This document shows, piece by piece, positions 19,084 to 38,924 of a stretch of DNA of 64,000 bases. Position 1 is the stretch's first letter; the number at the start of each line of letters is the position of its first letter. A program made the position numbers and the translations under genes. Location: contig CP084167.1 of NCBI GenBank assembly GCA_021513715.1, forward strand, positions 672,001 through 736,000, given 5' to 3'. This DNA comes from Candidatus Heimdallarchaeum endolithica (lineage in GTDB: Archaea; Asgardarchaeota; Heimdallarchaeia; Heimdallarchaeales; Heimdallarchaeaceae). The notes beneath the pieces are model-generated. The model was given only the letters and a program-made list of their open reading frames with translations. It made no database searches and had not been told where the DNA came from.

Positions 19084-19372
19084 TCATTTCATTTTTTTTA
19101 ACTCTCTTCCAAATAAAAATACAGTTAAGATTGTAGCCCCCAAAGCAAGTAAAAACAAATAAATTAAAGTTATTTCGAATGGAGAATTATCCAGAAATTA
19201 GCCAAAAGACCAAGGAAAGACAGCTGCTAATGTGTTGGGTATTGCAAACAAGAAACCAAGTGCTGTTGACCTATTTCCTGATGCACTTCTTCTCTTACAT
19301 ATCTTGTACTTGCTACACTACTAAAGTGTAAAAAGGCTATGAAAGCAAAATAAAATATTATTATTCCACATG
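19084..19372 (-). pseudogene. 3' fragment of an MFS gene, paralog of 22084-23337
   Basis: Reverse complement aligns with about 23045-23337; contains a 1-nt frameshift and a TAC>TAA stop; truncated at or within a few bases of CATG 19369. Confidence 0.85.
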
Positions 19373-19773
19373 TTCGAGAAGGTAAAGGAAAAGGAAAAAG
19401 TACTCGTAAGTTTCGCAGGAAACTTCATCAGTGGAACTTTTCTCTTGTCCTTGCTCTTCTCCGTCGGACACTAATATTAAGAGGTTTTGACCCTCATCGA
19501 ATATTAACAATAGAAGAAAGAGGGACATCTTCTCACTGTGCTCGTTACGGGAAGAAAGTTATCCGTCCAGTAAGAGGTTTAGTTCATTGTTCTTCTTGCA
19601 ATTACACTTTCCACTCTGACCTCACAGGGGCAATAAATATCGCTCGTAAGTTCCTTGGGGCTCTTTTCCGTCCTCGAGGAACAACTATCACTGATTACCT
19701 CACTGGTCAAAGGTTCAGTTCTACCCATTTCACTGTTTGCCGAGGGCTCAGCCATTGGTTGCAGTCCCAGTAG
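19369..19773 (+). pseudogene. tnpB: tnpB C-terminal fragment, 134 codons, no start codon
   Basis: Translates ...EERGTSSHCARYGKKVIRPVRGLVHCSSCNYTFHSDLTGAINIA...GLSHWLQSQ*, matching the 37211 ORF. Confidence 0.9.
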
Positions 19774-20029
19774 ATGAAAAAGGACTTAACTAATTCTATC
19801 CTCTTATATTTGAGGTTTAGTTCTTTCTTTTTTGTCTCTCGTGGAGTGAAGAAAGATAGAAAGAAAAACTTTCTTTTCTTCTTTATGATTCCCACGATTC
19901 GTGTATGATGTCTGTCTCAACTCTTCATAGCATTGTATGACTTGGTTGAGTTCAAGAGATTAAACTTTTACTTGTTTTTTCTCTTGCAAGACAGAGTGCG
20001 AAAAACTTTACGTAAAAAAGTAAATCATG
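19774..20029 (+). ncRNA. Putative omega-RNA scaffold (remnant copy)
   Basis: TCGTGG(19839)/CCACGA(19892) and TCTGTCT(19911)/AGACAGA(19989) stems equivalent to those at 38767-38870. Confidence 0.65.
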
Positions 20030-20083
20030 ACAAAATACTGCATCTTCTGGTGTTTTTGATCCACATTTTGTACAATATTTCAT
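20026..20083 (-). pseudogene. 5' stub of a zinc-ribbon gene cut at CATG
   Basis: GGTGA RBS then MKYCTKCGSKTPEDAVFCH, broken before the fourth Cys exactly at the element end. Confidence 0.65.
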
Positions 20084-20133
20084 AAACATTCACCCATATT
20101 ACTACCATAGTAGTAATACTATCTTATATAAAT

Positions 20134-20688
20134 CTATTCAAATCTTTTAGAAGTGAAAGTGAACACATGTTGAATAAAGGATTTGGGGGTGAACCCTCTC
20201 CTAAAGTAAAGAATTGAAAGAAATACTAAACTTAAGAAACCTCCAATTTCATTATAATAGACATAAGGTTGTAAAAGAAACTGAAAGTATGTTTGTGTTT
20301 TTGGTTGAAAAGTATAGTTTACAAAGGGGAAAAACCAAGGAATAAATCCTGCTGTATCTAAAATGATATGCATTATCCAACCCAGAATCAATGCAGAATA
20401 AACAGTGGGTTTTTTCCTGAAAACAACTATGAATAAAATGAACATCAGTATAGCAAATGGAATTGAATGACCAATGTATCTTCCATAACCTGTTATAGGC
20501 TCTGAAATGAGTTTATCAATAATATCTGGTCCAAGAGCTCCAATTATTAGGGGAATAAAAGCAAAATGAACTATCCCCCAACTATCTGTAGGTTCTAAAT
20601 TTTTCTTTTTTAGAAGTAACCAATAATAAAGATGAGCTATAATTTCTGCTGTTAATAATGTGTATCCAATGTGGGCAATTAAGAACAT
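20134..20688 (-). CDS. Membrane-bound metal-dependent hydrolase (YdjM-like)
   Basis: N-terminal His, GALGPDIIDK, RYIGHS, HIILD. Confidence 0.75.
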   Translation of the reverse strand: MFLIAHIGYTLLTAEIIAHLYYWLLLKKKNLEPTDSWGIVHFAFIPLIIGALGPDIIDKLISEPITGYGRYIGHSIPFAILMFILFIVVFRKKPTVYSALILGWIMHIILDTAGFIPWFFPFVNYTFQPKTQTYFQFLLQPYVYYNEIGGFLSLVFLSILYFRRGFTPKSFIQHVFTFTSKRFE

Positions 20689-36954: not shown

Positions 36955-37143
36955 ATTGAAGAACTTGAAAAGAAAGTAGAAATACCAAGAGAGTGGGTTA
37001 TAAAAACAGCTTATAAAATAGAAACTCTGGAAGGAGGTTATTATCTATGGAAAGAGTTTCTAGGAGCATTAAACAAGGATTCTCTACTGATGATAGAAAA
37101 CGACAGTTTACCCCATGAAAAAATTTTTTGTATAAATTCTTTA

Positions 37144-37155
37144 GGTTTTTAAATA
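37144..37155 (+). promoter_or_regulatory. Putative TATA box for tnpB
   Basis: GGTTTTTAAATA, conserved as GGTGTTTAAATA at 28015-28026. Confidence 0.45.
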
Positions 37156-37210
37156 AATTGCTTAATTAATAAATAGAGAAAAGAAAGTGAAGAAGAAAAA
37201 GGATTAGAAA

Positions 37211-38725
37211 ATGGAGAAAATAGTGAGAACATTAAGAGTAAGAGTAAAAACAGAAAAATTAACGAAGTTCAAAAAAGATAGAATGAGAAAGATAACAGGA
37301 AGAGATACTAGAATAATAGAAGAATATGTAAAAATAATAAGAAAAGAAGAAGAAAAAGTAATAAGAAAAATAAGCAAACAAGGAGAGATAAGACTAAAAG
37401 TGCATAAAGGCAAGTTAGATGAACTAACACTAACAACAACAAAGAAAACAAATAAGAAAAAAAGGACAGTTGTACCCTATGATCTCAAAAAAAAGTTTCC
37501 TAATTGTTCTCACGATGAATTTCAAGAGTGTAGAGATGTAGCAGTACAACTTTATGAACAAGGATATAACAAAAAAAAGAACAAAAAAAGAAAAAAAGGA
37601 TATATTTTACCACCAGTAAAACGAGCAAGAAAACAACTAATCAATAAAAATAGATTTATCATAAAACATTTGCCTAAAGGGAAAAACACTCTTTCTCGTT
37701 GGTGGGTAGGGATAAGAGACTCATTAGACACACAAAAAAGAAAAAAACGAACACATCGAAGACTATGGATACCACTAGAAATGAGTGAATATCACCAAAA
37801 AGAAATAAGAAAAGGACAAGTAAAAAGTCTAGAATTAAAATATAACTCACAAAAAAACAGTTGGTGGGTAAATTTTCAGATAACAATTATTCCTCAAGCA
37901 GATCTCTACAAGAAAAAAAAAGTTGACTCTTCTCTTCTTCCTCCAGCTGTGCTGGGAATAGATCTGGGAGAAAAAATACCTGGAGCAGGAGTGTTATTAA
38001 CATCAACAGGTAAAATATCTCCCAATCATATTTTCTTCTGGAAAATGAAAGAATGGAAAAAAAGGAAGTATATCTATCAACAGAAAATAAGAAGATTGCA
38101 ACGAAAACTTGCAAAAAAGAAGAATACATGTAAAGACAAAAGAAGCAATAAAGGATATCAAACATTAAAAAAATTAAGAAAAAGATATCAGACGCTCTCT
38201 CATGCTTATTTATATGCTTTTATCAATGAGTTGTGGAAAGATATTGTTGAACTTACACAGGATTATAATTTAGTCGTTGTTGTTGGTTACCCCAAGGGAG
38301 TACACTCGAAATTAAGAAAAAAAGTAATGAATCAAGACTACAGACCACAGAACTCTTCTACTCGTTTTACTCGTAAAAAGGTTCACCCGTGGAATTACTA
38401 CCAAATAGTTACTCTTCTTCGACGAATGTGTCTTCTAAATGGGTTAGAACCCGAACGTATCCTCACCTTACAGGAATATCTTACCTCTTCTCTTTGCTCA
38501 AAATGTGGACGAAAGACTATTCGACCTGTTAGAGGTCTTGTTTATTGTTCTCATTGTCATTATACTCTTCACTCTGACCTTACCGGTGCAATCAACATCG
38601 GGAAATTGTTTCTTCGTTTTCTTTTTCGCCCCCGAGCATCTACACTAGTTGATTATCTTACTGGACAACACTTTAGTCTCACCTTTTATACTTCCTTCAG
38701 GGGTCTCAACCAGTGGTTGAAATAG
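37211..38725 (+). CDS. tnpB: TnpB-family RNA-guided nuclease with rearranged (Fanzor-type) RuvC-II
   Basis: LGIDLG, VVVGYP, QEYLTS-x2-CSKC...CSHC, HSDLTGAINI. Confidence 0.9.
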   Translation: MEKIVRTLRVRVKTEKLTKFKKDRMRKITGRDTRIIEEYVKIIRKEEEKVIRKISKQGEIRLKVHKGKLDELTLTTTKKTNKKKRTVVPYDLKKKFPNCSHDEFQECRDVAVQLYEQGYNKKKNKKRKKGYILPPVKRARKQLINKNRFIIKHLPKGKNTLSRWWVGIRDSLDTQKRKKRTHRRLWIPLEMSEYHQKEIRKGQVKSLELKYNSQKNSWWVNFQITIIPQADLYKKKKVDSSLLPPAVLGIDLGEKIPGAGVLLTSTGKISPNHIFFWKMKEWKKRKYIYQQKIRRLQRKLAKKKNTCKDKRSNKGYQTLKKLRKRYQTLSHAYLYAFINELWKDIVELTQDYNLVVVVGYPKGVHSKLRKKVMNQDYRPQNSSTRFTRKKVHPWNYYQIVTLLRRMCLLNGLEPERILTLQEYLTSSLCSKCGRKTIRPVRGLVYCSHCHYTLHSDLTGAINIGKLFLRFLFRPRASTLVDYLTGQHFSLTFYTSFRGLNQWLK

Positions 38726-38924
38726 ACCTATGTACTATTATACCATAATGGTAGAATACTTAGTACTCGTGGAGTGAAGAGTTCTACTCTTCTTTATGCG
38801 TCCCACGATTCCTAGATGATGTCAGTATGCTCAAACATCTGTTTCAGCGTTTGTATTCTTCCACTGACGTAGTAGGAGAAAATTGTACAAAAAATTAACT
38901 CATGAAGAAGAATACTTGATAAAC
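38726..38924 (+). ncRNA. Putative omega-RNA scaffold plus flanking guide
   Basis: Stems GTACTA/TAGTAC, TCGTGG/CCACGA, GAAGAGT/ACTCTTC, ATGTCAGT/ACTGACGT; covaries with 19774-20029. Confidence 0.65.

Follow-up and report, generated by a model that had tools for sequence, protein, structure and literature searches.

Non-autonomous TnpB elements with imperfect inverted ends insert at C-AT-R sites in Heimdallarchaeaceae and may rely on a host serine recombinase

The window analysed here, a stretch of 64,000 nucleotides at positions 672001-736000 of the single 3,326,783-bp contig (31% GC) of Candidatus Heimdallarchaeum endolithica, holds one full tnpB element of a lineage termed T, one truncated T element, one miniature of type A, one of type B and one end stub (Table 1). 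The full element lies within a host TPR gene, which it breaks at a His codon. All belong to a family of non-autonomous elements of the Heimdallarchaeaceae, in which tnpB with a putative omegaRNA, or the putative omegaRNA alone, lies between imperfect inverted ends.

Table 1. Elements, element parts and joints in the window. Coordinates are window positions.
Feature	Coordinates	Strand	Basis or detail
Complete tnpB-only element, lineage T, 1791 bp with both CATG	37114..38904	+	Second copy 99.2% identical; empty site in sister genome; frame restored
T-element left end: CAT, spacer starting with G, inverted-repeat box; left flank base C	37114..37135	+	
TnpB, 504 aa, C4 zinc finger	37211..38725	+	PF07282, alignment, motifs
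Putative omegaRNA region, ends in TCAT	38726..38903	+	3′ of tnpB, alignment
T-element right end	38883..38904	-	
Miniature A, 383 bp, putative omegaRNA-only derivative of T	27140..27522	-	Right end at 27140, left end at 27522
Miniature B, 356 bp, putative omegaRNA-only derivative of lineage C	27973..28328	+	Left end at 27973 (flank T-CAT), right end at 28328 ending TGAT
5′-truncated T element with the tnpB 3′ portion (stop near 19773), putative omegaRNA region and right end (20008-20029)	19370..20029	+	88.9% to full copies
CATG fusion joint: segment of host MFS gene to CATG inside tnpB, no element end	19370..19373	.	
18-bp T right-end stub at CATG of IS4-like inverted repeat, cut off by IS481-like fragment	26835..26852	+	

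An initial annotation of the window had listed eight ends sharing one motif and proposed that they mark an element family. All eight strings were found where it had placed them; seven are true element ends, and the eighth, at 26852, is the stub, which probably derives from a T right end, given its exact 18-bp match. The motif as the mark of a family was borne out across the 3.33-Mb genome, where CATG-N8-TTTTRYRYA has 48 matches, compared with 0-5 for spacers of 4-7 and 9-13, so that the distance from junction to box is indeed fixed. CATG is enriched 18-fold genome-wide at the spacer-8 distance from the box. A position weight matrix, trained on these same ends, gave 71 sites scoring at least 17 and none in an order-4 Markov simulation. 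The motif is thus beyond chance, and its sites pair into 40 complete elements: 13 lineage-T elements (1.79-1.88 kb) and three lineage-C elements (1.49-1.60 kb) that carry tnpB, together with 17 miniatures of type A (∼380 bp) and seven of type B (∼356 bp). Identity among many of the copies is 98-99.7%, indicating recent movement. A published count of the transposase families of this genome (Wu et al., PMC8813620) mentions neither TnpB nor miniature inverted-repeat transposable elements (MITEs).

The junctions were defined by comparison with a sister genome, in which the sites occupied here by the full T element and by miniature B hold a single 4-mer, and by reading frame, since host frames of 407 and 240 codons are restored when one CATG is kept. 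Position 19369/19370, where the range given by the initial annotation begins, is no element end and proved to be a fusion, at CATG, of a host gene to the interior of tnpB. Read inward, left ends start with C and have G or A as the fourth base; at right ends the fourth base is constant (G for T and A, C for C and B) and the first varies. The two 4-mers are equal in 22 of 30 T and A copies and in none of the 10 C and B copies, and differ in 18 of the 40 complete copies, which rules out a 4-bp CATG target duplication. AT is present at every scored junction, scoring having been anchored on AT within 3 bases. Because left and right 4-mers vary independently, the target is C-AT-R and AT alone is common to both junctions; the crossover core first assigned to CATG therefore contracts to these two bases. 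Taken together, these findings show that the elements insert at C-AT-R and leave an intact site upon removal. The same junction sequence would result from crossover over a 2-bp core, from duplication of 2 bp or from cleavage 3′ of CAT at the two ends.

Inside the junction, the spacer had been described as always starting with A and the box as a palindromic TT-RYRY-AA. The first holds for 92 of 93 right ends, left ends starting with C or G as well. The second holds in Heimdallarchaeum; the box is TTTTGCGAA in subfamily T2, TTTTCCCCAC in two further genera (g2 and g4) and TTCATCTATGTAAG in one metagenomic copy, and in the two genera and the metagenomic copy the AT core and the inverted ends are kept. 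The terminal inverted repeats are imperfect (about 11-14 of 16), and left and right ends within one subfamily are more alike than ends of distant subfamilies. On these comparisons the palindromic box is the form that an imperfect terminal inverted repeat takes in Heimdallarchaeum, and not a palindromic binding site common to the whole family; the two copies of the repeat change together between subfamilies. The box lies 10-19 bp from the core, with a second copy 10-11 bp further in at B, C, T2 and g2 ends. No hairpin was found at left ends, and those at right ends are weak and inconsistent (z +2.2 to -2.0); the terminal bases vary (G/A left, G/C right). Among 185,579 species, the C right-end motif occurs in Heimdallarchaeota alone, scans of viral sequences returned distant TnpBs and chance motif matches only, and the literature searched contained no description of these ends.

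A crossover of the recombinase type is the best fit to this end structure. The C-AT-R target with its AT core, the single 4-mer of the empty sites and the IS607-like spacing of the boxes favour IS607-like movement, in which the element would excise as a circle and re-integrate at C-AT-R through strand exchange by a serine recombinase across the 2-bp AT. We lean towards this course of events, with moderate confidence.

The two lineages carry distinct TnpBs. The protein in the window, of lineage T, has RuvC-I D251, a Gly replacing the canonical RuvC-II Glu, an alternative E422 and D456, and hence the rearranged RuvC type previously described among TnpBs (PMC10691335); the C protein, of 445 aa, has the canonical D-E-D triad. 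The triad is complete (in T with the alternative E) and a zinc finger is present. T and C proteins share 21% profile identity and fall in separate clades of a tree built by a quick method, in which the link of T to the clade of aCas1-associated TnpBs had a support of 81-92. The nearest relatives of T belong mostly to another Asgard family, where tnpB stands head to head with a gene for a 1500-1900-aa protein. In the Thorarchaeia-type relatives with this gene, tnpB is followed by GTTCACTCA, a motif reported for aCas1-TnpB loci (PMC10691335), which is replaced by AACTCAT or AAATCAT in Heimdallarchaeaceae elements. The large protein itself (L283:872-6523 and related loci), beside tnpB in many Asgard genomes, is Cas1-like with a PD-(D/E)xK part; its N-terminal domain matches Cas1 structures weakly (Foldseek E 0.1-0.8), and no Pfam or Atlas match was obtained for the protein. 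In the closest relatives of C the ends form hairpins and terminate in TGAC. It appears, then, that two TnpB stocks reached the same ends independently.

Miniature B aligns with the region 3′ of the C tnpB, which folds with compensatory changes, and miniature A aligns with the region 3′ of the T tnpB in other genera. Double changes affect 11 of 29 pairs of the putative C omegaRNA and eight of 24 pairs of the putative T omegaRNA, although for the latter the covariation term is weak; a search of Rfam gave no match. We infer that both miniatures consist of omegaRNA only; the flanks described next suggest that they are kept by TnpB acting in trans. In T elements of genus g4 (L126-L133), several of them at the same ATPase gene, tnpB is in addition preceded by a long stretch (∼350 bp) of structured sequence, possibly a second RNA.

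The bases flanking the ends differ sharply between the lineages, a bias that the initial annotation had not recognised, as it had not recognised the TnpB and omegaRNA nature of the elements or their two unrelated lineages. Among distinct junctions from three genera, curated by hand, thymine precedes the left-end CAT in only two of 56 for T and A and in 24 of 25 for C and B, against a background of 35% (Fisher p 3e-17). The avoidance in lineage T is specific to the left (two of 48 left vs 32 of 67 right junctions, p 1e-7). Right ends terminate in TCAT in lineage T and in TGAT, CGAT or CTAT in lineage C, so that each lineage's right end has a terminal 4-mer that its own left flank avoids. In subfamily T1790 (two copies) the box is C-like and the flanks are T-like, a hint that the bias may follow TnpB rather than the box. 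From the left-flank bias and the right-end 4-mers, the transposon-associated motifs (TAMs) are predicted to be VCAT for T and TCAT for C, with self-avoidance built in. A comparable arrangement is known from an IS607 element with TAM TGGG, right end TCGG and core GG (10.1101/2023.11.20.567912). It is therefore likely, in our judgement, that TnpB, guided by the right flank (for the full T element, host sequence from 38904 onward), cuts the empty site next to VCAT or TCAT according to lineage. The right ends would be non-TAM and the filled site would be spared; the left-flank bias would then record the insertions that were retained, miniatures being protected in trans. The two TAMs are sharp predictions that are cheap to examine.

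Besides intact elements, the genome contains CATG fusions that lack an end, at genome positions 139099, 139283, 231436, 1007398, 1184271, 1375285 and 3286698. These joints fit with insertion, rearrangement and clean excision, and could have arisen through insertion followed by recombination between copies and clean excision. Genome-wide, 10 of 77 breakpoints fall at CATG, compared with 2.2% for random positions, but this set is contaminated by alignment ends and only individually checked junctions were used. With 40 complete copies and several such fusions, the elements have reshaped this genome. Around the fusion in the window (16793-23346), segment 20026-23346 is inverted relative to the sister genome; 16793-19373 is 91% identical to that genome, against 81-86% for most neighbouring sequence, and the 3′ part of the MFS gene is duplicated. 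This suggests a history of gene transfer plus a CATG-bounded rearrangement.

The window has further features besides. An IS4-like DDE element at 34577-35580, present in ∼30 copies, has CATG in its inverted repeat and unrelated ends; a relative of it was the target of the stub at 26852. An IS481-like element at 29741-30750 has TGT...ACA ends and, in most copies, an unusually long target duplication of ∼16-17 bp. Positions 23472-26597 and 53380-57321 hold large surface-type genes with tandem repeats of 138, 144 and 69 bp.

The enzyme that moves the elements had been expected to be encoded elsewhere, and the absence of any enzyme gene within an element indicates that it does act in trans. The accompanying suggestion, that a cognate recombinase or DDE enzyme would be found among open reading frames enclosed by paired motifs, came to nothing: no copy holds a second gene or a transposase. 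No transposase-tnpB pair with these ends was found in the neighbourhoods of TnpB and recombinase homologues, and no autonomous partner in genome, metagenome or viral scans. For each of Y1, IS607 TnpA, tyrosine recombinase and aCas1 there is at least one complete carrier genome without it. Y1 TnpA occurs in four of 31 family genomes and was not found in the complete sister genome or in any of 25 genomes of genus g4. The resident Y1 TnpA was rejected; the only IS605 of the genome (L014, 923850-925980) is disabled by a miniature A in the start codon of tnpA and has hairpin ends of its own. Tyrosine recombinases are missing from three carriers and, across the family, from about half of the genomes, one of them complete. 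aCas1 was dismissed as the mover (none in 31 family genomes), as was IS110, which is absent from the Heimdallarchaeum genome. IS4-like, IS481-like, IS6-like and ISH3-like elements were excluded as a source, each having its own ends; the resident DDE families are patchy among carriers, and no autonomous DDE element with these ends was found, single-copy DDE genes not having been screened exhaustively. Motifs beside serine recombinases in two genomes (G020 and G022) proved to be chance matches inside a host gene.

All carriers examined have in common two chromosomal serine recombinases of ∼240 aa, located here at genome positions 316731-317450 and 405351-406154. In both complete genomes these are the only two serine recombinases, of the C-terminal-domain type; none has the N-terminal helix-turn-helix (HTH) of an IS607 TnpA. 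They consist of a catalytic and a recombinase domain without zinc ribbon, have a fold closest to that of Bxb1 integrase, and retain the catalytic Ser and Arg. Members were detected in 28 of the 30 Heimdallarchaeaceae genomes and in none of about 370 other Asgard genomes (E 1e-25), and extra paralogues adjoin restriction and regulator genes. The two genera whose first paralogue has lost the Ser, represented by two incomplete genomes (G003 and G005), yielded no T or C element. These minimal serine recombinases (L001:1216-1935 and L002) are core genes of Heimdallarchaeaceae and may replace XerA. By elimination and co-occurrence, a host serine recombinase is the best remaining candidate for the mover; that the enzyme is one of the two 240-aa proteins we put forward tentatively, at somewhat less than even confidence.

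Several points weigh against this assignment. The recombinase was not encountered within or next to any element, no host site resembling a circle junction was found, and the family-restricted range of the recombinase is common to many genes. The box varies between subfamilies within one genome, which is awkward for a single conserved enzyme. Most relatives are incomplete metagenome-assembled genomes; circle, transcript and cleavage are predictions; and a 2-bp AT duplication made by a DDE enzyme would yield identical junctions. The explanation as a whole, of transposase-free TnpB elements with AT-core ends moved in trans in an IS607-like manner by a host serine recombinase, is accordingly offered as provisional, its chances falling a little short of even. 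An evolutionary extension of it is doubtful: a third TnpB route, in which two unrelated lineages, one aCas1-linked and one from a hairpin-ended IS1341-type stock, would have lost their transposases, converged on ends for a minimal serine recombinase and divided the C-AT-R targets by the complementary TAMs VCAT and TCAT.

Of the alternatives, the one that survives best, although unlikely, is an IS607-type TnpA with N-terminal HTH and an AT core, whose autonomous source is rare, was lost recently or lies outside the chromosome. The end layout, the 2-bp core and the TAM logic all match IS607, subfamily-specific boxes suit subfamily-specific enzymes, and IS607 elements with non-GG ends do exist in the family. 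Those elements, in g2 and g4 (L309-L325; left ACCGT/ACTGT, right CGTGYGT), have other ends and a different TnpB of 640 aa, however; the two complete genomes hold no such TnpA even though element copies there reach 99.7% identity, and the scans noted above revealed no partner.

An unrecognised HUH-type single-strand enzyme, reading the stem of the left end with the right end and cutting 3′ of CAT at both, is quite improbable. It would account for left and right ends changing together between subfamilies and for the combination of an asymmetric left-flank preference with a fixed right-terminal 4-mer, which is the IS200/IS605 pattern, and the TGAC-terminated hairpin ends among relatives of C are of Y1 type. 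The left ends lack any hairpin, the right-end hairpins are weak and inconsistent, most carriers are without Y1, and a purine preference 3′ of the cut is not a known feature of Y1 enzymes, all of which speak against it.

Slightly less probable again is a DDE transposase acting in trans with a 2-bp AT duplication at C-AT-R. Inverted ends are a DDE hallmark, TnpB elements included (PMC10691335), and IS4-like and IS481-like transposases are abundant in the genome. Each repeated DDE family there nevertheless has different ends and duplications of its own, the terminal bases of the elements are not conserved, DDE families are patchy among carriers, and the end-less CATG fusions imply clean excision. 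Least probable is spread by a Cas1-type integrase, or by TnpB-made breaks and host repair: the Cas1-resembling neighbour and the GTTCACTCA of aCas1-TnpB loci in the nearest T relatives, and the CRISPR Cas1 genes of this genome, are outweighed by the absence of the 1500-1900-aa protein from 31 family genomes, the different ends of its loci, the lack of any such link for lineage C and the long duplications that Cas1-type enzymes produce.

Should the host recombinase prove to be the mover, it would be a 240-aa serine integrase with a target of near 4 bp, and the elements would provide a case of mobile DNA using a core host recombinase. An analogy is offered by IMEX elements, which exploit host XerCD. 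There a mobile element without a recombinase of its own uses a chromosomal one, as may be the case here; the enzyme in the present case would be of the serine and not the tyrosine type, and the targets are many rather than dif.

Among systems in which TnpB is known, the tnpB-only IS1341-type members of IS200/IS605 are alike in having tnpB-only and omegaRNA-only members moved in trans, in being closest to the C TnpB, and in a conserved left motif (here VCAT/TCAT) with a fixed right terminus (TCAT/TGAT); they differ from the present elements, which have inverted ends and no paired subterminal hairpins and whose carriers mostly lack Y1. The aCas1-associated TnpBs (Cas1H-Asgard groups, PMC10691335) are 30-35% identical to T and share its rearranged RuvC, and their right end, CTCAC, resembles the CTCAT of T, but the present elements have different ends and target, and no aCas1 beside tnpB or in the family. 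DDE-associated (IS630-linked) TnpB and Fanzor1 elements likewise place a TnpB with rearranged RuvC-II between inverted ends; here there is no DDE gene and the terminal bases are not conserved. Compared with DDE insertion sequences and MITEs, terminal inverted repeats are present and a 4-bp target duplication is not. The closest likeness is to the IS607 family (IS607, IS1535, ISC1926 and CboIStron, with serine TnpA and TnpB): tnpB is followed by the omegaRNA at the right end, a 2-bp core at both junctions leaves a scarless empty site (a 2-bp AT duplication looks alike), the subterminal motifs are helically spaced (right-end motifs at bp 10-28 in IS607; PMC6188088), and the left flank departs from the right end at the base expected to confer self-avoidance. 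Set against this, the core is the palindromic AT instead of GG, the ends are clearly inverted and common to two unrelated TnpB clades, and no copy, nor either complete genome, has tnpA. The elements are therefore most like IS607, with membership failing on tnpA and the GG core. Taken together, these data describe a family that is real and, as non-autonomous TnpB elements, ordinary in kind, whose previously undescribed design of AT core and inverted ends widens the range of architectures in which TnpB is known, and does so in archaea near the origin of eukaryotes.

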